Shown here one piece after another: positions 660 to 35,007 of a DNA stretch of 64,000 bases (position 1 is its first letter; each line of letters begins with the position of its first letter). Origin of the DNA: Promethearchaeota archaeon (lineage in GTDB: Archaea; Asgardarchaeota; Lokiarchaeia; Sigyniarchaeales; SOKP01). The stretch is taken from the NCBI GenBank assembly GCA_016840085.1, contig JAEOTA010000051.1, positions 1-64,000 on the forward strand, read 5' to 3'. The notes under the pieces were generated by a model. It was not told the DNA's origin, made no database searches, and was given only the letters and a program-made list of their open reading frames with translations. The position numbers and the translations under genes were made by a program.

Positions 660-944
660 TTATACGTTCGCTAAATACTCGTTCAACACGATGTTTAAAT
701 CCACTTCTGAACTGTTAATCTTTTTGAGCAACTGCCTTAGCCCATATGCATTCAACAATAACTCGATGAGATTCTTATACAACGCCGTAATATTCTCCTT
801 ACCCGCCTCATAATACACCTCATCTTCGCTCACGCTCACGCATAAATCCATAATCTCATATAACCCCTTCAGGGCAGCCTTTATATTCTCAAAATTACTC
901 ACTGCCTTTTCAGTCGATTTTTTCACATAACTTGAGTTAGCCAT
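660..944 (-). CDS. Hypothetical helical protein, 94 aa
   Basis: ORF with strong GAGGTGA SD (954-960) and TATA-like TTTATATA near 983-990. Confidence 0.75.
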   Translation of the reverse strand: MANSSYVKKSTEKAVSNFENIKAALKGLYEIMDLCVSVSEDEVYYEAGKENITALYKNLIELLLNAYGLRQLLKKINSSEVDLNIVLNEYLANV

Positions 945-14770: not shown

Positions 14771-17625
14771 TCGAGTTTTTCTATTTTTTTTTTGAGTTCT
14801 GTTAATTGTCCTTTTAATTTATCCGGAATGTCTGATTCAATATCAATTTCTTTAATAGAATTAAGTAAATCCAATATTTCTTTTTTATTGCTTATTGGTT
14901 CAAATAAGCTTGTTTGTACATAACGTTTCTTTTTCTCAGTTTTTTTTTTGGAAAGTTTGGATCTATTAACTTCGAGCTCTTCAATTTCATTCTTTTTTCT
15001 CTCTAATTCTTTTTGATTTCTACTTAAATCTTCAATACATTCACTTAAGGAATCCTTTATATTGTTAATTTCCTCATTTAATTTATCAAGTTCAACTTTT
15101 TTTTCATTGATAATTTTATCATAATATTTACCTGATGAGGCTATTTCCCCATGTTCTTTAACCGCAGTTATAAAAGGATCTTTTTCTTCTCTTTGTTCGA
15201 GAATTTCAAAAGCTCTTATTATCACATCATCAGGGATCCCTGCTAATTTCGCAACATGGATTCCATAGGACTTATCTGTACTTCCCGGTTTCAATGTTCT
15301 AACAAAGTTTATACTCCCATCATTATTTTCAATAATATCTAAATGAAAATTTCTTACTCTTGGTAATGTAATTTCTGTTAATTGATGATAATGTGTACTA
15401 AATAAAGTCTTAATTTTTAACCCATGTAGCTTTTCAAGACTAGCCATTGCTATACTTTGACCATCACTCGTGCTTGTTCCTCTTCCTAATTCATCTATTA
15501 TAACAAGACTTTTTGGTGTGGCGTAGTTTAAAATTTTTGCTGTTTCTGTCATTTCAATCATGAAAGTGCTTAATTTTCTCGCAAGATCATCTGAGGCTCC
15601 AATTCGCGTAAAAATCTGATCAATCACACCTATTGTGGCAGATTTTGCGGGAACAAAACATCCCATTTGCGCAATAATACAAATTAAAGCAACCTGCCTT
15701 AAAAAAGTACTTTTCCCTGCCATGTTTGGGCCAGTAATTATTAATATCTGGTCAGTATCATTATCTAAATAACAGTCATTAGGAATGAATTGTTCATCCA
15801 AGTTTATTTGCTCAATTACGGGATGCCTTCCATCTTTAATTATGATTTTGTCTTTATTATTAATGAGAGGTCGACAATAGTTATATTTTTCAGCAATTTC
15901 AGCAAAACATGTGAGAACATCGATAATAGCAATATTTTTAGCAGTTTTAAGGATACTTTCAGTTTCTTTCTCAACTTTTTCACGAATAGTGTTGAAAATC
16001 TCATATTCTAGATCATTAATTTTTTCTTCTGCATTTACTATTTTCTCTTCAAGTTCTTTTAGTCGATTCGTAGTGTATCTTTTAGCATTTTTAAGAGTTG
16101 CTCTTTCAATATATTCTTCAGGAATAGTCTTTATGTTTTTAAGTGTTCTTAAAGTTATTTCAATATAATAACCAAGGATATTATTAAACCCAACTTTTAA
16201 TCCTGAAGTCAAATTCCACTTCTTCTTCTGTTCTTGTTCATATGCTAATACATATTTTTTCCCATTATGAATTATATCCCTAAGCTCATCTACTTGATTA
16301 TTAAAACCATCTTTAATAATATTTCCTTCCATAATAGTAATCGGGGGATTATCCTTTATTGAGATATTAATTAGATCCTTTATTTCATTGAAAGGTTTAA
16401 TTTTTTCAATGAATTGTGAAATTTCTGGAATATCTGCCTTTTCTAATAATTCCTTGATAATTGGAACTTTTTCTAAAGAGTTTTTGATGTTTATCAAATC
16501 TCTAGCATTCGTGCGACCTGCAAAATTAATCCTATTGATAAATCTTTCAAGATCGCCAATAACTCCTAACTCTTCCCTTAGATCAGATCTTAAAAAGATA
16601 TCATCCTTAAATTTTTGCACAATATTTAATCTTTGATTAATTTCCTCAATATCCGTTAGAGGTTGGAGAATAAACTTTTTCAATAAACGAGCTCCCATTG
16701 GGGTTCGTGTATGGTTAAAAATGGAATATAATGTAGCATCTTTTCCTCTATCCCATAAAGAATTAATTAGTTCTAAATTCCTTTGTGTGATATAATCCAA
16801 GTGTAGTATGTTTTTTTCTTGTATAAGATTAATTTTAAAAATGTTTGGCACTACATCTCTTTGTGTTTCTTTTAAAAATGCTAATAGCCCTCCAGCTGCT
16901 TGAACGGCCATTTCTTTATCTTCTAAACCAAAACTTTTTAAATTTGAAATTTTGAAATGACGAGAAATTAAGGCGTGAGCTTCCTCATATAAAAAGACAT
17001 GTTCTTCGTAGGATTTAATGATTGCTTTTGTTAAATCTGTTAATATTATAAAAAATCTCTCATCTTTTTTCAGTTCAGGAGGAATAATAAGTTCTACGGG
17101 ATCATATTGAGAAAATAGACTAAGTAATTTTTCTTGTGGATCTTGTTCTTTATAAGAAAATTCAGTTGCTACAAATTCTGCGGTTGATATATCTGCGAAA
17201 GCAACACCAAAACCGATTCTCTCTTTTACCATAGCAGCAATGTAATTATTCTTATTGGATTGTAATAAGTTTGGTTCTATAATTGTTCCTGGTGAAAGTA
17301 TTCGAGTGACTCCTCTTTTCACAATTCTTCCCTTTACTGTTGATGGATCTTCTAATTGATCTACTATAACTAAAGTCTCACCGAGGTTCATAAGATTGTT
17401 AAAATAATTATGACCACTATGGTGTGGAATCCCTGCTAAAGGAACATCTCCTCTTTTTGTTAGCGTTAATCCTAATAGTTTTGATATTCTTTCTGCATCA
17501 TCATAGAAAAATTCATAAAAATCTCCCATTCGGTAAGCAATGAGATTCTCTGGAGGAAATCCTTTACGAATAGAATACCAATGTCTCAACATAGGAGTCA
17601 GTTTCTTTGGGTCTATGTCCTCCAT
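14767..17625 (-). CDS. mutS: DNA mismatch repair protein MutS (MutS1) with C-terminal coiled coil
   Basis: TPM, RMGDFYEFF, TGPNMAGKST, DELGRGT, STHYH, SYGIHVA. Confidence 0.96.
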   Translation of the reverse strand: MEDIDPKKLTPMLRHWYSIRKGFPPENLIAYRMGDFYEFFYDDAERISKLLGLTLTKRGDVPLAGIPHHSGHNYFNNLMNLGETLVIVDQLEDPSTVKGRIVKRGVTRILSPGTIIEPNLLQSNKNNYIAAMVKERIGFGVAFADISTAEFVATEFSYKEQDPQEKLLSLFSQYDPVELIIPPELKKDERFFIILTDLTKAIIKSYEEHVFLYEEAHALISRHFKISNLKSFGLEDKEMAVQAAGGLLAFLKETQRDVVPNIFKINLIQEKNILHLDYITQRNLELINSLWDRGKDATLYSIFNHTRTPMGARLLKKFILQPLTDIEEINQRLNIVQKFKDDIFLRSDLREELGVIGDLERFINRINFAGRTNARDLINIKNSLEKVPIIKELLEKADIPEISQFIEKIKPFNEIKDLINISIKDNPPITIMEGNIIKDGFNNQVDELRDIIHNGKKYVLAYEQEQKKKWNLTSGLKVGFNNILGYYIEITLRTLKNIKTIPEEYIERATLKNAKRYTTNRLKELEEKIVNAEEKINDLEYEIFNTIREKVEKETESILKTAKNIAIIDVLTCFAEIAEKYNYCRPLINNKDKIIIKDGRHPVIEQINLDEQFIPNDCYLDNDTDQILIITGPNMAGKSTFLRQVALICIIAQMGCFVPAKSATIGVIDQIFTRIGASDDLARKLSTFMIEMTETAKILNYATPKSLVIIDELGRGTSTSDGQSIAMASLEKLHGLKIKTLFSTHYHQLTEITLPRVRNFHLDIIENNDGSINFVRTLKPGSTDKSYGIHVAKLAGIPDDVIIRAFEILEQREEKDPFITAVKEHGEIASSGKYYDKIINEKKVELDKLNEEINNIKDSLSECIEDLSRNQKELERKKNEIEELEVNRSKLSKKKTEKKKRYVQTSLFEPISNKKEILDLLNSIKEIDIESDIPDKLKGQLTELKKKIEKLD

Positions 17626-18003
17626 AATCTACTCATTTGAAAGTTAAGTAAAATTAATACTCAGTATAATCTATTATAGCAGTAATTTAATATTAATTAT
17701 ATTTGTTAATTTTTTAATAACAATTATATAGAAGACAGAAAGGTTTTTTATTATTTTTAAGAGCCTACTAAAATACTAAGAAATAAAAAAAATAAGGATT
17801 AATAAGAATAAAATTTCAAAACTTGTTTAATATCTCGCTTTATCATTTTTTTAAGTGATCTAAACTTTTTTATTAATTATTCACGAACATATCTCATCTT
17901 ATAAACTTCAAATAGTAATTCTAATTGTTCAAATCACTCCTCTCAAAAAGTAGGTTTATTTTTATTATTATTATTCTTAAAAATTTTTTTAAAATAAAAA
18001 ACA

Positions 18004-18010
18004 TATAAAT
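18004..18010 (+). promoter_or_regulatory. Candidate TATA box for the trp leader transcript
   Basis: TATAAAT preceded by an A-rich run, about 50 nt upstream of the leader ATG; weak evidence in AT-rich DNA. Confidence 0.35.
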
Positions 18011-18057
18011 AGTAGGAATCCTTATTTTCTCAATATATTTGAAATATGGTTTAAAAA

Positions 18058-18111
18058 ATGGCAACTGAAAAAATTATTCTCTTCCGTTGGCAGTGGCTTT
18101 GGCGCGCATAA
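18058..18111 (+). CDS. trpL: Putative trp operon leader peptide MATEKIILFRWQWLWRA (17 aa)
   Basis: Three TGG codons within five codons (18088, 18094, 18100); same strand as and upstream of trpD; overlapping hairpin. Confidence 0.8.
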   Translation: MATEKIILFRWQWLWRA

Positions 18112-18128
18112 GAACGCGCTTCACATTG
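18091..18128 (+). promoter_or_regulatory. Hairpin overlapping the leader Trp codons and stop
   Basis: GCGCG 18102-18106 pairs with CGCGC 18115-18119; CAGUG 18091-18095 pairs with CAUUG 18124-18128. Confidence 0.6.
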
Positions 18129-18544
18129 GTTAAATCATATTTTATTGCTTACATTCTTGAATACTTTTATTCTCCTTTCTGAAAGCATGAAATTTATTTT
18201 CTACATGTGCTTTATTATATTGAATTCGAATATAGTAAAGTTACACATCTATAATGTGTTAATAAAACTGAGTAAAATGGTAAAAGGAAGCAGAAAAATA
18301 TTGGAAGAAAAAAAGATTGATTAAAATTTGGATGAAATGAGTCATTATCATAAAAATATATTATACACTTTTAATAAAGAAACTATCTCCAATGAAGAGA
18401 TATTCAATAAAATTATTTGCTTAATCAATAAAAAAAACTTTTGCATGTTAGGACCCGAGAAAAATAAAACTGCTAGGTTTATTGTTTAAAATTATGTAGA
18501 AGTGTTTAAAATTATTAATAAAAATTTAAAGAGTTTGGATTAAA

Positions 18545-19600
18545 ATGTCAGAAGAAAACATAATTAAAGGATTAAAGAAAATTGTCGGAAAAGTTAATTT
18601 ATCAACAAATGAAGCAGAAAATATTATGAGAGAGATAATGAGCGGAAAAGTACATGATTCCCAATTAGGAGCATTTTTAACAGCCTTAAATATGAAAGGT
18701 GAATCTATAGAAGAGATCACGGGTTTTGCTCGAATCATGCGGGAATTCGCAAATCGAATTGAACCGCATTTAGAAGGAGAATTATTAGATACATGTGGTA
18801 CTGGAGGTGATAAAGTAAAAACTTTTAATATAAGTACGATCTCAGCTTTAGTTGTGGCAGGTGCAGGAGTTGCTGTGGCAAAACACGGAAATAGAGCAGT
18901 TACAAGTAAATGTGGTAGTGCAGATTTATTAGAAGGATTAGGTGTAAAAATTGACTTACCCCCTGAAGAAGTTAAGAAATGTATAGAACAAGTAGGTATT
19001 GGTTTCATGTTTGCGCCTTTATTTCACCCGGCGATGAAATATGCCATGCCAACAAGAAGAGCACTGAAATTTCGAACAGTATTTAATATTCTTGGACCAT
19101 TAACGAACCCCGCTAATGCAAAATGTCATGTCTTAGGTGTCTTTCAAAAAGATTTGGCTCCGGTTATGGCGAAAGTTCTAAATGGATTAGAAGCAAAACA
19201 TGTCTATACAGTATATAATTCATGCGGAATTGATGAGGTCGCACCAGTTGGAATAAATTACATTACAGAAGTTAATAATGGAAGTGTTGAATCCTATGCT
19301 CTAACTAATCAAGATTTTGGAATCCCTGAATGCTCCATTAATGATATACTTGCAGGAAATTTAGAAGAAAACCTGAAAATTGCTATAAGTATTCTAAAGG
19401 GTAATTTTAAAGATGCAAAATACCATACTGTCTTAATGAATGCGGCATTAGCTTTAAACAGCGTAAATAAAGCTAATAGCATTAAAGAGGGTATAGAAAT
19501 AGCAAAAAATTCAATAGAATCTGGGAATGCTTTTAAGAATCTTGAACAATTTATTGAAGTTTCTGGTGGAAATAACGAAAAATTGAATAGCTTATTATAA
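18545..19600 (+). CDS. trpD: Anthranilate phosphoribosyltransferase
   Basis: DTCGTGGD, FNIST, KHGNRAVTSKCGSAD, RTVFNILGPLTNP. Confidence 0.97.
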   Translation: MSEENIIKGLKKIVGKVNLSTNEAENIMREIMSGKVHDSQLGAFLTALNMKGESIEEITGFARIMREFANRIEPHLEGELLDTCGTGGDKVKTFNISTISALVVAGAGVAVAKHGNRAVTSKCGSADLLEGLGVKIDLPPEEVKKCIEQVGIGFMFAPLFHPAMKYAMPTRRALKFRTVFNILGPLTNPANAKCHVLGVFQKDLAPVMAKVLNGLEAKHVYTVYNSCGIDEVAPVGINYITEVNNGSVESYALTNQDFGIPECSINDILAGNLEENLKIAISILKGNFKDAKYHTVLMNAALALNSVNKANSIKEGIEIAKNSIESGNAFKNLEQFIEVSGGNNEKLNSLL

Positions 19601-19606
19601 ATCAAA

Positions 19607-20419
19607 ATGAGTTTTATGGCTTTAAATAAAATAAATGAAATTGTAGAGAAGCGGAAACACTCTCTCACAGAGGATATTAAGTATAAAATTTCATTAAATT
19701 CTCATGTGTTTAGGGATAATCGAAGCTACTTAAGTAAAGCCATAAAAGATAATTCAGGAATTTCTATTATTTCTGAGATAAAACCAGCTTCACCCACTTT
19801 GGGAGATATTCGAAAGAATATTGATATAAAGGAACTTGCAAAGGAGATGGAAAGAGCTGGGGCTGTTGGATTAAGTATTTTAACGGAACCAAATTATTTT
19901 AATGGTTCATATGAAAACTTAAAACTCGCAGTGGAAAGCACTAAAATACCATGCATAATGAAAGATTTTGTAGTTGATTCTGTTCAATGCTTTATTGCAT
20001 ATCAACTAGGAGCTACTAATATATTAATTATAAATTCCATAGTGGATCAAAGAGTAGAAGATATGGTATCTACAGCAATTGAATACCGACTTGAGCCACT
20101 AATTGAGATTCATGATGTAGAAGAGATAGAGGATATAAAGAATTTGGTTGATATCGGTTTAGTCCCTATGATAATTGGAGTTAATAATCGAAATCTTAAA
20201 ACATTAGAAATAGATTTAAACACTTCAAATGTAATAATCCCTAAATTGAAACAAGAATTTGGAGACGAAGTTGTGGTAATAAGTGAAAGTGGAATACAAA
20301 GTTATGAGGATATCCAATATTTACAACCAACCGGAGCAGATGGATACTTAATTGGCTCATCAATAATGAAATCTGATAGTATTTATGATAAAATCCTATC
20401 TTTACGGGGTGTTAAGTAA
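19607..20419 (+). CDS. trpC: Indole-3-glycerol phosphate synthase
   Basis: EIKPASPT, SILTEP, KDF, GVNNRNL, SESGI. Confidence 0.95.
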   Translation: MSFMALNKINEIVEKRKHSLTEDIKYKISLNSHVFRDNRSYLSKAIKDNSGISIISEIKPASPTLGDIRKNIDIKELAKEMERAGAVGLSILTEPNYFNGSYENLKLAVESTKIPCIMKDFVVDSVQCFIAYQLGATNILIINSIVDQRVEDMVSTAIEYRLEPLIEIHDVEEIEDIKNLVDIGLVPMIIGVNNRNLKTLEIDLNTSNVIIPKLKQEFGDEVVVISESGIQSYEDIQYLQPTGADGYLIGSSIMKSDSIYDKILSLRGVK

Positions 20420-21078
20420 TGGAGTATGTAAAGATTTGTGGTTTAAAAGATCCTCGACATATAAAACTATGTCTAGAATATGGTGCTAATGCCGTAGGAT
20501 TTATTTATAATGTTCCCAGTTCTCCAAGAAACCTAGAAAAAGATGAATTATTGACACTCTTGAGAAAATTCCCAAAAGGTATTTTAAGAGTTATTATTAA
20601 TAGATCGGATAGTTTATCTGATTGCGTAAATATTATGAATGAAATCAATGCAGACTATTATCAATTTCATTGTAATTTTAGTCTTCGAGAATTTGGCAAA
20701 CTTCCAATGAATATGAGAAAAAAAATTATTGTAGGAATGAAAATAAATCAAGCTAATAAAGACTCTGCCATAAATGAGATCATTTTTAGCTTTGACCAAT
20801 TCTTCGCATTTCTCCTTGATAACAGTGAAGGACAAGGTACAGACTTAGATTATGATCTTATATTGGAAGTATTAAGAAGGACTTATGGCTCTAAAATAAT
20901 AATCGCGGGGGGGATTAACATTGATAATGTTGAGTATTTGATAAAAAATCTTAGACCCTTCGGAATTGATGCAAGTAGTTCCTTAGAATCTAAAAGAGGT
21001 GTTAAAGACTCCATTAAAATTGTAAAATTCTTAAATAAAATTAAGGAAATTAAATGTTATATGCAAAGTGGAACATAA
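20419..21078 (+). CDS. trpF: Phosphoribosylanthranilate isomerase
   Basis: [26 protein letters not shown]. Confidence 0.9.
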
Positions 21079-21080
21079 TT

Positions 21081-22283
21081 ATGGATTATATAAACAAATA
21101 TCCCGATAATTTAGGCAAATTTGGAGAGTTTGGAGGCCTCTTTGCTCCTGAAATTCTTATGCCTGCTCTAAATGAACTGACTGAAGCGTATCATAAATAT
21201 ATGTCAGATGATGATTTTCTAGAAGAATTTTATCAGATACTTAAATATTATAGTGGAAGACCAACACCTCTCTATTATGCGGCTAGTTTAAGCGAAGATA
21301 TTGGCTGTAAAGTCTATTTAAAACGAGAAGATTTAAACCATGGAGGGGCACATAAGATAAATAATGTAATGGGACAAGCTCTTCTCGCAAAAAAAATGGG
21401 AAAAACAAAACTTGTAGCTGAAACGGGCGCCGGGCAGCATGGATTCGCGACTGCTATAGCTGGGGCTTATTTTAGAATGGAAACCAAGATCTTTATGGGT
21501 GAGATTGATATTGTCAGGCAAGCGTACAATGTATATAGAATGCAGCTCCTTGGTGCAGAAGTAATTCCCGTTAAATCCGGATCAAAAACATTAAAAGACG
21601 CCGTTAATGAAGGACTTCGATATTGGATTGCTAATGTTCATGACACTCATTATTTGATGGGAAGTGTGGTAGGACCACATCCGTATCCGCTGATTGTTAG
21701 AGAATTTCAGAGAGTTATAGGGAAAGAAGCTAAGAAACAAATATTAGAATTAGAGGAAAAGTTACCTAATTATATTATTGCGTGTATTGGTGGGGGAAGT
21801 AACGCAATTGGAATTATGTATGACTTCATAAATGATAAAGATGTACAATTAATTGGAGTGGAGGCCGCTGGGGAGGGAAAAGATACTGTAAAACATTCGA
21901 TTGCTCTCGGTTTGGGACGAAAGGGAGTGCTTCATGGGTCGTTGATGTACCTCTTGCAAAACGAATATGGCAATATATTGGAAACTCATTCAATTAGTGC
22001 TGGATTAGATTATCCCGGCGTTGGACCTGAGCATTGCTTTTTAAAAGAACTTGGCCGGCTTAGAGTGGGTGCAGCTACAGACGATGAAACGCTAGCAGCT
22101 TTCAAAAAATTAAGCCTTTTAGAAGGAATAATACCTGCTCTTGAAAGTTCTCATGCACTTGCATATTTGGAGAGAATTAAAGAAGAGTTTAAGAAGGATG
22201 ATGTTCTAATTGTAAATTTGTCCGGTAGCGGCTCGAAAGATTTAGATATTATCAAAAAACATGTGGATTTTAAGATTAAATGA
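21081..22283 (+). CDS. trpB: Tryptophan synthase beta chain (TrpB1); start placed at ATG 21081
   Basis: [44 protein letters not shown]. Confidence 0.96.
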
Positions 22284-22408
22284 AAATCGTAGTCTTAAAT
22301 GGAAGTCCGAAAAGAAATGAAATGAGAGTTATTATGCATTACATTTTCTATATTGAGAAATATTCTTTTAATGAGGAAAAAGAACAATTAGGGATGGTTT
22401 ATGCTTAA
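22280..22408 (+). pseudogene. 42-codon ORF whose N-terminus resembles a flavodoxin-like NAD(P)H-dependent FMN reductase
   Basis: [27 protein letters not shown]...; ATG overlaps the trpB TGA and the stop lies inside the trpA 5' end. Confidence 0.6.
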
Positions 22409-23240
22409 TTCAAACAGAATTATAGAACTGTTCACAGATGAAAGTCGAGAGGATGATAATTTTTTCATGCCCTTCTTAGTAGCGGGAGATCCAGATATTG
22501 AACAATTCAAAACTTTAGCTTTAGCTATTGAGCCATATTCTGACATTCTTGAAATTGGTATCCCCTTTTCAGATCCCATTGCAGATGGCCCAACTATTCA
22601 AGAAGCCAATGTAAGAGCTTTTAATGCGGGAATTACTACTAAATTAGCTTTAAACGCTATTAAGGATATAAGAAAGAAAACTGAAAAGCCATTAGTAGTT
22701 TTGACCTATTATAACATACTAATTCAAGGTGCTGATACCATAGAAGCATCTCTAGATAAAACATTTAAAAATCTTAAATATTGCGGTGTTGACGGAATTG
22801 TTATTGGAGATTTACCTATAGAAGAGGCTGGATTGGCTCTTAAAGCATGTAATAAATATAATATTTGTCTTATTTTTCTAATCGCTCCATCGACTACAGA
22901 GGACAGACTGGAAAAGATCTTGAAGGTAGCTAGGGGGTTTATATATTTGATTGCTGTTATGGGAGTCACGGGTGCGAGAGATATTGTTGCTCAAATAACT
23001 AAAGAAACTATTAAGCGAGTGAAGCAGAAAACTGAGCATGTGCTTCCTGTATTTGTAGGATTCGGTATCTCTAAACCCAAACATGCGAAATCAATTGTTG
23101 ATGCCGGAGCAGATGGCATCATCATAGGCTCTGCTATTGTTAATATAGTTAAAAAAAATCTTAATGATTATGAAAAAATGGAAACAGAAATGGTGGAATT
23201 TGTTTCCAATATAAAAAATGCCATAAAGGAGTCGAAATAA
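22401..23240 (+). CDS. trpA: Tryptophan synthase alpha chain
   Basis: AGDP, EIGIPFSDPIADGPTIQ, GVTGAR, VGFGIS, GSA. Confidence 0.96.
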   Translation: MLNSNRIIELFTDESREDDNFFMPFLVAGDPDIEQFKTLALAIEPYSDILEIGIPFSDPIADGPTIQEANVRAFNAGITTKLALNAIKDIRKKTEKPLVVLTYYNILIQGADTIEASLDKTFKNLKYCGVDGIVIGDLPIEEAGLALKACNKYNICLIFLIAPSTTEDRLEKILKVARGFIYLIAVMGVTGARDIVAQITKETIKRVKQKTEHVLPVFVGFGISKPKHAKSIVDAGADGIIIGSAIVNIVKKNLNDYEKMETEMVEFVSNIKNAIKESK

Positions 23241-23242
23241 AT

Positions 23243-24739
23243 ATGGAATTTGACATACACATTGAAAAAATTGGAGAGCTGGATGATATTTTTGGATTCT
23301 ATAAATATTTAGTAAAGAGATATGATTTAAAGAAGCATGCGCTCTTGGAATCTGCATCTGAAAATACTAAAGAAACGCTTTATAGTTTTCTTGCTCTTGA
23401 CCCGGACTTTATGTTAGAAATTAATGAAGATAAATTCAAAATTTACGATATCACCACCGCAAGAGGAGAAACTATTAAGGAATATGTGGAATCAAAAGAT
23501 CCTGCAGAGGAAAGACCACGTAATCCTCTTCCTTTTAAGGATAATGTGAATTATAATATGATCACTCTTGACACACTAAGCCATCTTACACCCTATTCTA
23601 ACCTTCCTTTTACAGAATTATTCCCAAGAAACATCTTTTACGGCGGGATGCTCGGGTATATCGGTTATGACGTGGTTGCGCCCTATGTAGTGTATAAATC
23701 AACTAGTGAGTTTCCCGACGTTCTTATGGCACTTTATACTAAGGTTTTGGTCTATTCCCACAGCTCAAACGTACTATTTATGATTGATAATAGCATCGAC
23801 GACTACTCAAAAGATAAGTATATTCGGTATCAACTAAGTCTGTTTAATAGAAATAATAAATCTGATGAAAAAAAAGAAATTAGTTTTGATATAGAAGAAG
23901 TGGATGAATCTAGTTTTCGATCTAATACATCAAAATCTGCTCATGAACGGATGGTGGAAAAAACAAAAGAATATATTTATGCGGGTGACATAATACAAGC
24001 CGTTATCTCACGAAGGTTATACACAGAGAGTCATATAGACCCAATGAAGATTTATGAGATTCTAAGGGTTCTAAATCCCTCCCAATATATGTATGACCTT
24101 AATTTTGATAAGATAAAAATCATAGGGAGTAGCCCTGAAGCACTAATTTCCAAGAATAAGGATGTTCTAAACACGGTCCCTATTGCGGGAACCATACGTC
24201 GAGGCAAGAGTTCAGAAGAAGATCTAAAATTAGAAAAAGAATTATTGAATGATCCTAAAGAGCAAAGTGAACACATCATGCTTGTAGATTTAGCGAGAAA
24301 TGACCTAGCAAAAGTCTCATATCCAGGCTCAGTTGATACCTATGAACTTATGACAGTTCAAAAATATCAAAAAGTCCAACATATTGTAAGTAAAATTAGA
24401 AGTAAGACGCCTCTTGACGGATATCAAGTATTAAAGAGTGTTTTCCCTGCGGGCACACTCTCAGGAGCACCTAAAAAACGTGCAATGGAAATAATTCAAG
24501 AATTAGAAACAGAGTCAAGAGGCCCCTATGGTGGGGGTGTCGGTTATTTCTCTTTCAATGGTGATATGGCATTTGCTATCGCAATTAGAACTCTATTTGG
24601 GAGGAATGAAACGTATTTTGCTCAAGCAGGAGGTGGCATTGTTGCGGATAGCCAACCTCACAAGGAATATATGGAAACTTATAACAAGTTATATAGCATA
24701 CTGAAATCTATTAAAATCGCGGAGGCGAAAGAAAATTGA
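23243..24739 (+). CDS. trpE: Anthranilate synthase component I
   Basis: LLES, GSSPE, PIAGT, EHIMLVDLARND, PAGTLSGAPK, QAGGGIVADS. Confidence 0.94.
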   Translation: MEFDIHIEKIGELDDIFGFYKYLVKRYDLKKHALLESASENTKETLYSFLALDPDFMLEINEDKFKIYDITTARGETIKEYVESKDPAEERPRNPLPFKDNVNYNMITLDTLSHLTPYSNLPFTELFPRNIFYGGMLGYIGYDVVAPYVVYKSTSEFPDVLMALYTKVLVYSHSSNVLFMIDNSIDDYSKDKYIRYQLSLFNRNNKSDEKKEISFDIEEVDESSFRSNTSKSAHERMVEKTKEYIYAGDIIQAVISRRLYTESHIDPMKIYEILRVLNPSQYMYDLNFDKIKIIGSSPEALISKNKDVLNTVPIAGTIRRGKSSEEDLKLEKELLNDPKEQSEHIMLVDLARNDLAKVSYPGSVDTYELMTVQKYQKVQHIVSKIRSKTPLDGYQVLKSVFPAGTLSGAPKKRAMEIIQELETESRGPYGGGVGYFSFNGDMAFAIAIRTLFGRNETYFAQAGGGIVADSQPHKEYMETYNKLYSILKSIKIAEAKEN

Positions 24740-24978
24740 AACTTAAGGGAATTAAATCGGGATGGTATGCCACCAAAATTAGATTTTATGAAGAAGAGAT
24801 TGATAAAAACGAATTATTAAAAGATACTTATTATTGTGTTACCTCTTTTGAAGAATTTATGTACCAGTTTCGGATAGAAAATACCTTGTGGTTTTGTTTT
24901 AACCTGAATTTTGCTCTAAATGAAATTGAACAAGAATACTTGGATAAAATAGAAAATCAACCAAAAGGAGAGAAATAA
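24736..24978 (+). CDS. Hypothetical 80-aa protein inside the trp operon
   Basis: TTG overlaps the trpE TGA; ends 3 nt before trpG. Confidence 0.6.
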   Translation: MKLKGIKSGWYATKIRFYEEEIDKNELLKDTYYCVTSFEEFMYQFRIENTLWFCFNLNFALNEIEQEYLDKIENQPKGEK

Positions 24979-24981
24979 AAA

Positions 24982-25575
24982 ATGAACATTCTACTCATCA
25001 ACAACTATGATAGCTTTGTGTATAATTTGGCCAATTACATTTGCCAGTTGGTGCCAGACTCAAATATCATCGTGGAAGATAATAAGATTCCTGTGAATAA
25101 AGTCAAGGAACTTGCTATTGATAGGATCATCATTTCACCCGGTCCCGGTCACCCGAAGTACGACACCGGGACAGTGATTCCAATCATAAATAATTTTTAT
25201 GATAAAATCCCTATATTAGGTATATGTTTAGGACATCAAGCCATAGTCGAGGCATTTGGAGAGGATCCAAGTAAAGAATATGTAGGAAGAGCTAAGGTTG
25301 GACCGATGCACGGAAAACTCTCAAAGGTATTCCATGACCAAGAAACAATACTAAAAGACATTCCAAACCCCCTAATGGTTATTCGATATCATTCACTCGC
25401 AGCAAAATCTGACATTTTACCTCAAGATCTAAAAATTAGCGCTACCGCAGATGATGGAACGATAATGGGTATTAGGCATAGAGAATTTCCTGTGGAGGGG
25501 CTTCAATTCCATCCCGAATCTATAAAAATGAAGCCGCATGGAATGAAAATCTTGAAGAATTTCTTAATATTATAA
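24982..25575 (+). CDS. trpG: Anthranilate synthase component II (glutamine amidotransferase)
   Basis: NNYDSFVYN, SPGPG, GICLGHQ, RYHSL, QFHPES. Confidence 0.95.
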   Translation: MNILLINNYDSFVYNLANYICQLVPDSNIIVEDNKIPVNKVKELAIDRIIISPGPGHPKYDTGTVIPIINNFYDKIPILGICLGHQAIVEAFGEDPSKEYVGRAKVGPMHGKLSKVFHDQETILKDIPNPLMVIRYHSLAAKSDILPQDLKISATADDGTIMGIRHREFPVEGLQFHPESIKMKPHGMKILKNFLIL

Positions 25576-33718: not shown

Positions 33719-35007
33719 CTATTAGAGAAAAGAAAAAGATGTTGATTGATGAAAATGTTACAATTCTAACAGGAAATCATGCTGCAGCACATGCTTTTAG
33801 ACAATCAAAGGTTGGTGTTGTTTCTGCTTATCCGATAACTCCACAAAGTCCTGTTGTTGAAAAAATTGCTGAATTTATAGCAGAAGGAAAGTTAAATGCA
33901 AGATTTGTAATGGTCGAATCAGAACATTCTGCTCTTGCTGTATGCTGTGCTGCTTCTGCAACAGGTTCTAGAGTCGGCACAGCAACTTCAGCTCATGGAT
34001 TGGAATTTATGTATGAAATGTTACCATGGGCAGCGGGAAATAGACTACCATTAGTTATAAATCTAGCCACAAGGTCGCTTGGAGCACCTTGGTCTGTCTG
34101 GACAGATCACTCGGATTTTATTACGATTAGAGATGTAGGTTGGATGCAATTCATGTGCGAAAATAACCAAGAAATTTATGATACAAACATTCAAGCTTTT
34201 AGAATTGCTGAAGATAAGCGAGTTTTTTTACCAGCAATTGTAGCATATGATGGATATATATTATCACATACAGTTATGCCTGTAAAATTAGAAAATCAAA
34301 AAGACATAGATGAGTTTTTACCACCTCTTAAGCATCATATTAATTTATCAGATATTTCAACAATTAAAGGAATAGATCCTGTTACAACGCCTCATGTTGT
34401 TAAAAGAGAAGAAGGAACTGCACCAGGATATTATGAATATAGATATGCCTTGCAGAAAGCATTAGAAAATTCAATAAATATAATTAAAGAAGTTCATGAT
34501 GAATTTGCTGAAAAATTCGGTAGAACTTATGGAAATGGTGTATATAAGGCAATTAATACCGAGGATGCGGATATAATAATATTTGGAATGGGATCTGTGG
34601 CTTCTCAATCTAGAATTGCTGTTAAAAAACTCAGAGAACAAGGATTAAAGGTGGGATTGGTAAGTCTGAAACTTTTTAGACCCTATCCCTCAGAAGAATT
34701 AAGGGAATTTTTCAAGGATAAGGAAAATATAGTGGTCTTTGACAGAGAGATTGGATATGGCTATGAAGGTGTTCTATCTTATGAATTGAAAGCTGCCCTC
34801 TATGGATTAAAGACAAGACCAAATATTAAAGGATTTATTGTGGGATTAGGAGGAAGAGATGTAAAAACTGAACATATCATTACTGGTGTTCGTCGAGCTT
34901 TAGATGATTTTAAAAAAGGAATTTTCACCAATAAAACAGAATTTTTGGGATTACGATTAGAAGAATTAGAAGATTATGATGAAAAAACTTATTTTGCAGA
35001 GAGGTGA
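33715..35007 (+). CDS. porA: 2-oxoacid:ferredoxin oxidoreductase alpha subunit
   Basis: AYPITPQS, VESEHSA, DGYILSH, GLGGRD. Confidence 0.92.
   Translation: MTIREKKKMLIDENVTILTGNHAAAHAFRQSKVGVVSAYPITPQSPVVEKIAEFIAEGKLNARFVMVESEHSALAVCCAASATGSRVGTATSAHGLEFMYEMLPWAAGNRLPLVINLATRSLGAPWSVWTDHSDFITIRDVGWMQFMCENNQEIYDTNIQAFRIAEDKRVFLPAIVAYDGYILSHTVMPVKLENQKDIDEFLPPLKHHINLSDISTIKGIDPVTTPHVVKREEGTAPGYYEYRYALQKALENSINIIKEVHDEFAEKFGRTYGNGVYKAINTEDADIIIFGMGSVASQSRIAVKKLREQGLKVGLVSLKLFRPYPSEELREFFKDKENIVVFDREIGYGYEGVLSYELKAALYGLKTRPNIKGFIVGLGGRDVKTEHIITGVRRALDDFKKGIFTNKTEFLGLRLEELEDYDEKTYFAER

Follow-up and report, generated by a model that had tools for sequence, protein, structure and literature searches.

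A conserved tryptophan-codon leader upstream of an Asgard archaeal trp operon, a candidate ribosome-read attenuator

The trp operon and its leader reading frame

We examined the region upstream of the tryptophan biosynthesis operon in a 64,000-nucleotide (nt) stretch of a Promethearchaeota archaeon genome (assembly GCA_016840085.1, contig JAEOTA010000051.1, positions 1 to 64,000; hereafter ‘the window’, whose positions are used throughout), where a short open reading frame (ORF) rich in tryptophan codons may act as a sensing leader. The host genome is a 4.68 Mb draft in 89 contigs, with a GC content of 29.5%. The operon, assigned by Pfam, occupies positions 18545–25575 of the plus strand in the order trpD-trpC-trpF-trpB-trpA-trpE-trpG; these are the genes proposed to be regulated, and mutS is their divergent upstream neighbour. 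Sequences closely related to this trpD, with identities of up to 85%, belong to Promethearchaeota, which upholds the Asgard assignment.

The leader ORF (MATEKIILFRWQWLWRA-stop; 18058–18111, plus strand) comprises 17 codons and is read from the sequence as ATG GCA ACT GAA AAA ATT ATT CTC TTC CGT TGG CAG TGG CTT TGG CGC GCA TAA. Its Trp codons lie at 18088–90, 18094–96 and 18100–02, placing three UGG within five codons, exactly as claimed in an earlier note made from the letters of this DNA alone. The setting given there is likewise borne out by Pfam and by the coordinates: the ORF is on the strand of trpDCFBAEG, its stop codon is separated from the trpD ATG by 433 nt, and the end of the mini-ORF (18080–18139) forms an island of 48% GC in intergenic DNA of about 20% GC.

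To place this ORF against its genomic background, we counted mini-ORFs with an ATG start and a length of 8–40 codons across the host genome, scoring those with at least three TGG in a five-codon window. Only 11 of 50,707 such ORFs qualify; nine lie inside long ORFs, and the two that are intergenic are both located 5′ of Trp genes (the trpD operon and a second gene, trpB2). The Trp-rich leader ORF is real, and far beyond chance. A chance ORF or meaningless remnant, which has nothing but the small size of the frame in its favour, is refuted by these statistics together with the conservation, covariation and Trp-gene specificity described below, and we give it practically no credence.

A putative archaeal TATA box (ATATAAATA, 18003–18011, plus strand) can be read from the sequence upstream of the leader, and a ATATAAATA-G block is found at an equal distance in the closest relative (G023). 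A promoter at this position would probably start the transcript near 18035, immediately 5′ of the RNA fold that surrounds the leader and some 20 nt before its ATG.

The long gap between leader and trpD is accounted for by a decayed small gene, here called orfX (18277–18543, plus strand), recognized by translation and from homologues in relatives. It forms one frame with two in-frame TAA codons (18322–24 and 18487–89) and no frameshift, and is separated from the trpD ATG by a single base. Intact homologues of 75–99 amino acids stand between leader and trpD as the first operon cistron in six relatives and have the motif LINxxxxxMLGPEKxxTARFIAxNYxDVY. Once the decay of orfX is taken into account, the leader precedes the original first gene by about 165 nt, in line with all other loci. 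The predicted structure of orfX is helical, and searches returned no Pfam family, no atlas neighbour and no PDB fold match. A mobile-element insertion was also considered for the 250 nt that precede trpD; that idea was rejected, as the genome contains no further copy of this stretch, which corresponds to the decayed orfX.

Conservation, paralogy and candidate leaders for other amino acids

The second intergenic TGG-rich mini-ORF (MIMATVIYFTWQWPWWRQ-stop, contig C81:42463–42519) ends 128 nt before a gene for a 471-amino-acid PALP-family protein that is 75–98% identical to the gene behind the same leader in relatives, and that we read as trpB2. The peptides MATEKIILFRWQWLWRA and MIMATVIYFTWQWPWWRQ are paralogous, a relationship also seen at the DNA level (ATGGCAACTG ... 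TGGCAGTGGC). Within the genus trpB2 was found in 43 of 54 genomes, and each of the 30 genus trpB2 loci examined encodes M-A-T-V-x4-W-Q-W-P-W-x-W-Q/R-stop about 150 nt upstream. The distribution of trpD is patchy (two of 25 genus genomes sampled). Most genomes in the genus have no trpD and retain trpB2 behind the Trp leader, which suggests indole salvage rather than tryptophan synthesis from scratch. We also observed that the trpB2 leader on C81 lacks 24 nt, half of an AT-rich hairpin (H2), relative to a 98%-identical locus in the closely related genome G067; the latter genome gave no match to the window's trp leader or trpD DNA.

Beyond the genus, a Trp-rich mini-ORF is located 160–280 nt before trpD in all seven relatives of the order that have both trpD and upstream DNA (four families). 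The leader peptides before trpD in relatives include MANEKIIPFRWHWFWRA, ...GHFWFWWAWRL, ...FFCTWWPWQ, ...PRTIAWSWRG and ...NNSWTIWAWRL. In a second collection, three Trp within five codons occur at about 15 of 18 Promethearchaeota-type trpD loci versus three of approximately 55 loci of other archaea and bacteria. The Trp-rich upstream ORFs that the earlier note had proposed to look for before orthologous Asgard operons are therefore present, at trpD loci of four families and at trpB2 loci. Both the ORF and its codon bias are kept before orthologous operons while the remaining peptide drifts. Indels within the leader ORF measure 6, 3 and 3 nt, and the sole 1-nt indel falls after the Trp codons. 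One further locus, on a contig labelled Candidatus Odinarchaeota (L035, JBHLQA010000433.1), carries a leader (MANEKIIPFRWHWSWRA) and a trpD nearly identical to those of Promethearchaeota (81% identity for trpD), and is likely a case of mis-binning or recent transfer.

Genome-wide scans of a generic kind for amino-acid-rich mini-ORFs were overwhelmed by AT-rich codons; only targeted checks were informative, and comparable candidate leaders for other amino acids are present in the same genome. A His-rich mini-ORF (...MVHHWLHH-stop, contig C50:92111–92272) stands 87 nt before hisIE and is followed by a 13-bp hairpin. A Phe-rich one (...FLFKFFILPRE-stop, contig C78:222496–222585, minus strand) precedes pheS by 204 nt and has a GC hairpin of 10 bp spanning its stop codon, and a Leu-rich one (...LSLHLLLL-stop, contig C69, around 34687–34796) lies directly before leuA and is a more tentative candidate, Leu being common in this AT-rich genome. 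The match between codon identity and pathway for Trp, His, Phe and Leu is the strongest argument that the reader of these elements is the ribosome rather than an RNA-binding factor. Two additional mini-ORFs were noted. One, GTG-started and ending ...GLRWWLWLLWEQ (four Trp; contig C69:108857–108949, minus strand), precedes a gene for a 221-amino-acid membrane protein by 144 nt and could be a third Trp-linked leader or a product of chance; the other is Arg-rich (MRCIMRRVRRILRRCIRISSSYC, window positions 752–823, minus strand) and lies near the contig start, so that its downstream gene falls beyond the contig.

These observations bear on the possibility that the element is an RNA bound by a protein or tRNA, in the manner of TRAP or a T-box, with the UGG triplets as binding sites and the ORF incidental. 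The 3-nt spacing of UGG does resemble the triplet repeats bound by TRAP, and the small gene orfX accompanies many of the operons concerned. Against this, the UGG triplets without exception share the frame of an ATG and a stop close by, even where the DNA is AT-rich, and the indels preserve that frame; their spacing is always a multiple of three, including adjacent UGGUGG; and orfX is absent from loci of the G023 type and from trpB2 loci that retain the leader. The repeats are UGG at codon spacing in an ORF, and not the (G/U)AG with 2–3-nt spacers, or the specifier loop with T-box sequence, that would mark control of the TRAP or T-box type. The existence of matching His, Phe and Leu mini-ORFs also argues against such a binding site, as does the lack of an Rfam match: a scan of positions 17000–19000 against all families, with E values up to 10, gave four chance-level matches, none of them to Trp_leader (RF00513) or a T-box. 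We consider this explanation very improbable. Trp-responsive control of trp genes that is protein- or tRNA-based is exemplified by the TrpY repressor of Methanothermobacter and by TRAP and the T-box in Firmicutes; nothing in the present element requires any of these, and no search for them was made.

A conserved RNA fold encloses the leader

The mini-ORF is enclosed in a three-way RNA junction formed by helices P1, H0 and H1 (plus strand, as are all features of the fold), and the surrounding RNA (18036–18290) folds at −54.4 kcal/mol (z = −2.7). In the minimum-energy fold the 5′ strand of P1 (UGAAAUAUGGUUUAA, 18040–18054) pairs with 18130–18144; this 3′ strand (UUAAAUCAUAUUUUA), also supported by duplex energies and pair counts, includes a T4 run at 18140–43. 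The resulting helix encloses the mini-ORF together with its start codon. Duplex energies for P1 reach z values of about −3 to −6.7 relative to shuffled sequence in 11 of 12 trpD leaders, and likewise in two trpB2 subgroups, but not in the main trpB2 subgroup. Covariation is found at two of its pairs (GC 11, AU 6 and GU 5 at one; AU 12, GC 5 and GU 4 at the other). The Met-Val-stop micro-ORF (ATG-GTT-TAA, 18046–54) that had been listed as a feature of its own is contained in the 5′ strand of this conserved helix.

Within the junction, H0 (18059–18098; folds and pair counts) joins the start of the ORF (GGCAACUG, 18060–67, codons 2–4) to the first Trp-codon stretch in one of two possible registers, CAGUGGCU (18091–98) or GUUGGC (18086–92). 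Its cells are paired in 77–87%, with CG/UG/AU variation at one pair, and this pairing explains both the conserved ATGGCAACTG and an unusual CAG codon. The hairpin H1 (18093–18124; folds) consists of an inner stem of GGCGCG (18101–06) with CGCGCU (18115–20), an outer stem of GUGG (18093–96) with UCAC (18121–24), and a loop (18107–14) that holds the leader stop codon, while Trp codons 2 and 3 fall within its 5′ arm. A hairpin across the Trp codons and stop, as first proposed, is thus real with respect to GGCGCG/CGCGCU, but its outer stem in the minimum-energy fold is GUGG/UCAC and not CAGUG/CAUUG. Relatives build a hairpin at the H1 position from at least five different sequences. An invariant CAU (18124–18126; pair counts and footprint-constrained folds) can pair with the leader start codon (18058–60), the A-U and U-A pairs being present in 23 of 23 sequences and a G-C or G-U pair in 22 of 23.

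The junction is followed by a U-rich, poorly conserved spacer (18145–18208; base composition), a candidate termination zone. The U-rich tracts previously described 3′ of the hairpin correspond in part to this spacer, the first of them (18130–18144) being instead the 3′ strand of P1. Two hairpins then follow that are common to trpD and trpB2 leaders: H3 (18209–18241; folds and alignments), of 13 bp, and H4 (18243–18259; ACACAU-CUAUA-AUGUGU), with 73% of cells paired and two pairs changed on both sides. The H3 loop in the window (18223–18229, AAUUCGA) has the sequence CGAAU in place of the CCAAU of the other trpD and trpB2 leaders inspected, which disrupts a G-C pair that is invariant in 30 trpB2 leaders.

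Across the combined trpD and trpB2 alignment 75.6% of cells are paired, compared to 38–46% when partners are slid, and the covariation score was matched by none of 500 shuffles; for the trpB2 alignment alone the corresponding values are 87% and 29–50%. The RNA fold around the hairpin therefore covaries across relatives, which the earlier note had suggested as a check. Whole-alignment RNAalifold and a naive column-pair scan were too noisy to be of use in AU-rich leader RNA. Two additional arrangements were considered and set aside: a four-segment switch built from repeated CACAU and AUGUG boxes (18122–26, 18205–09, 18244–48 and 18254–58), and a kissing interaction of CAUUGG with the H3 loop sequence CCAAU. 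Because the boxes vary with no compensation, we claim neither.

A covariance model built on the leader junction was searched against the host genome, 131 genomes of the family, and three other families. It gave exactly two matches in the host and matches in 95 of the 131 family genomes (13 genera); no match was found in the three other families searched, since the leader sequences there are too different. Downstream DNA is available for 28 of the best 29 loci, and all 28 carry either trpB2 (20) or trpD (8) within roughly 100–430 nt. At two of those eight trpD loci orfX lies between leader and trpD.

The fold also helps in judging whether the product is an arrest peptide, in which W-x-W-x-W-R in the ribosome tunnel would sense free tryptophan and stall release at the stop codon, as for the TnaC leader of the E. 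coli tryptophanase operon (bioRxiv 10.1101/2021.03.31.437805). TnaC resembles the present leader in being a Trp-linked leader peptide with its regulatory event at or near the stop, and its output depends on a factor-dependent rather than an intrinsic terminator; it differs in sensing free Trp through one Trp residue and in inducing a catabolic operon, whereas here at least three Trp codons precede biosynthetic genes. WQWPW is nearly invariant in the genus at both the peptide and the nucleotide level, and the stop codon sits in the loop of H1, as an arrest peptide might lead one to expect. However, the nucleotide conservation is accounted for by H0 and H1, and peptides of distant families (AWSWRG, WTIWAWRL, FWFWWAWRL and TWWPWQ) have only Trp residues in common. 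The His, Phe and Leu leaders obey the same codon logic, and induction by Trp, as in TnaC, would have the wrong sign for biosynthetic genes. We consider arrest by the peptide highly improbable.

Probable tryptophan sensing, the output step and its meaning

The conserved Trp-codon ORF, the covarying fold, the exclusive link to Trp genes, and the loss of H1 under a ribosome footprint make the sensing step well supported. From the sequence evidence, a ribosome-read Trp sensor very probably controls the downstream genes, and we hold with good confidence that the leader is such a sensor, acting in cis, with the following scheme of folding and termination as the best explanation. A ribosome would translate the 17-codon leader with RNA polymerase still nearby. 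If charged tRNA-Trp were scarce, it would stall at the UGG codons (18088–18102) and cover the 5′ arm of H1 and the 3′ arm of H0, such that the three-way junction could not close; polymerase would then pass the U-rich zone and read into orfX and trpDCFBAEG. If Trp were plentiful, the ribosome would reach the stop codon and depart, whereupon the junction would fold and bury the leader start codon. The folded junction and adjoining U-rich tract would then cause the archaeal polymerase to stop before the first gene, either by intrinsic oligo-U termination or with assistance by FttA/aCPSF1. Both oligo-U and FttA-assisted termination are known archaeal routes.

We folded the leader with and without a ribosome footprint, as had been suggested. 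The pair probability of H1 falls from 0.94 in free RNA to 0.00 when the footprint is placed on Trp 2, on Trp 3 or on the stop, in agreement with a sensing role for the hairpin, but no downstream rearrangement accompanies this loss. Base composition makes the spacer a candidate site of output. From +21 to +90 after the stop, the sense strand of trpD leaders contains 0.48–0.49 T and 0.29–0.31 A, and the genome background upstream of genes is 0.38 T and 0.41 A. In trpB2 leaders the interval from +21 to +50 holds 0.56 T versus 0.27 A on that strand, and in 27 of 30 a run of T5 or longer begins 26–56 nt past the stop, with +32 the commonest position. Between H4 and the first gene, the spacing in trpD leaders ranges from 17 to about 130 nt. 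The hidden leader start codon, the T runs and this variable distance point to a co-transcriptional output; given the sensor, we stand evenly poised on whether co-transcriptional termination, as inferred here, is the output.

Several points weigh against this scheme. In footprint-constrained equilibrium folds P1, H3 and H4 are unchanged and no antiterminator/terminator switch is visible; candidate alternative pairings show no covariation. A ribosome at the stop codon blocks H1 as well, so that the model needs fast release and polymerase pausing, and the mechanism leaves the strongly conserved H3 and H4 without a role. A scan of 17630–18560 for bacterial-type terminators (hairpin plus U-run) found no sites, in keeping with the absence of a classical GC hairpin and U-run remarked on earlier, and the window's leader has runs of T4 at most after the fold. 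This copy also shows wear, with two stops in orfX and CGAAU in place of the CCAAU of the other H3 loops inspected. The promoter position is one that we infer, and the draft genome has an estimated contamination of 7.6%. Archaeal transcription termination needs no hairpin, and the criterion of an intrinsic terminator may therefore not apply. A scan of the leader region for bacterial promoters gave matches at chance level.

The same sensor might instead act after transcription, either by altering access to the start site of the first gene, in the manner of the ermC or cat leaders, or by a stalled ribosome that shields the mRNA 5′ end from 5′-to-3′ exonucleases. Archaea possess exonucleases of the RNase J/aCPSF2 type, and erythromycin-stalled ribosomes stabilize ermC mRNA in Bacillus. 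Such an output would fit the lack of a canonical terminator, the conserved H3 and H4 close to the trpB2 start, and a conserved GGUAA Shine-Dalgarno-like box that is kept at fixed spacing in the genus. It is disfavoured by the variable distance between H4 and the start in trpD leaders and by the hidden leader start codon, with which sensing at steady state would be switched off. Sequestration of the first gene's start site by the U-rich spacer was rejected, as duplex energies for the spacer and start region are no better than shuffled (median z = +0.6). We regard a post-transcriptional output as unlikely, though a serious possibility. The original proposal of a Trp-sensing leader peptide for an Asgard trp operon is thus supported by orthologous upstream ORFs, the trpB2 paralogue, the covarying fold and Trp-gene specificity; the caution expressed with it on mechanism also holds, there being no bacterial-type terminator and the output step being a proposed one.

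The design of the leader recalls the enterobacterial trpL (RF00513) and the his, leu, thr, phe and ilv attenuators, in which, too, a short upstream ORF contains a cluster of codons for the amino acid of the pathway, these regulatory codons lie in a helix that would be opened by a stalled ribosome, and one genome uses the design for several amino acids. In the E. coli trp leader, too, the ribosome-binding region ends up paired in the finished leader. Unlike trpL, the present element belongs to an archaeal host, has no sequence or model match to it, and contains no GC hairpin with U-run and no detectable antiterminator/terminator alternative. In addition, its ORF lies wholly inside a three-way junction closed by a helix of the 5′ untranslated region, and H3 and H4 have no counterpart. 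In ermC and cat, and reportedly in the polycysteine leaderless short ORFs of mycobacteria (bioRxiv 10.1101/834739), stalling in a short upstream ORF alters downstream genes in cis, and a terminator is not required. In contrast to ermC and cat, the stall here would arise from tRNA-Trp shortage and not from a drug, and sequestration of the downstream start site is unsupported. Eukaryotic upstream ORFs (GCN4 and the arginine attenuator peptide) are similar in that they adjust an amino-acid pathway through an upstream ORF that a eukaryote-like ribosome reads; they act, however, on scanning and reinitiation in capped mRNAs, whereas the present leader is part of a prokaryotic operon in which coupling of transcription and translation is possible.

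Leader-peptide attenuation is textbook gene control via coupled transcription and translation, and a full-text literature search for it found bacterial cases only and no archaeal precedent. We lean slightly toward the view that Asgard archaea (Promethearchaeota) control amino-acid genes for Trp, His, Phe and probably Leu by a general system of attenuation that the ribosome reads and whose construction differs from the bacterial one, with a mini-ORF in a self-closing three-way junction that hides its start codon and an output through the eukaryote-like transcription machinery of archaea at U-tracts or via FttA instead of a hairpin terminator, and that this would be the first leader-peptide attenuation known outside Bacteria. 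If so, the prokaryotes most closely related to eukaryotes would use ribosome-polymerase coupling for regulation, and these leaders would offer a natural and compact test system for termination by archaeal RNA polymerase and FttA and for the effect of a trailing ribosome. Codon-biased upstream ORFs could then predict amino-acid-responsive genes in uncultured archaea. The members of the genus that have trpB2 only, and yet keep the leader, bear on the question of dependence on partners for tryptophan or indole.

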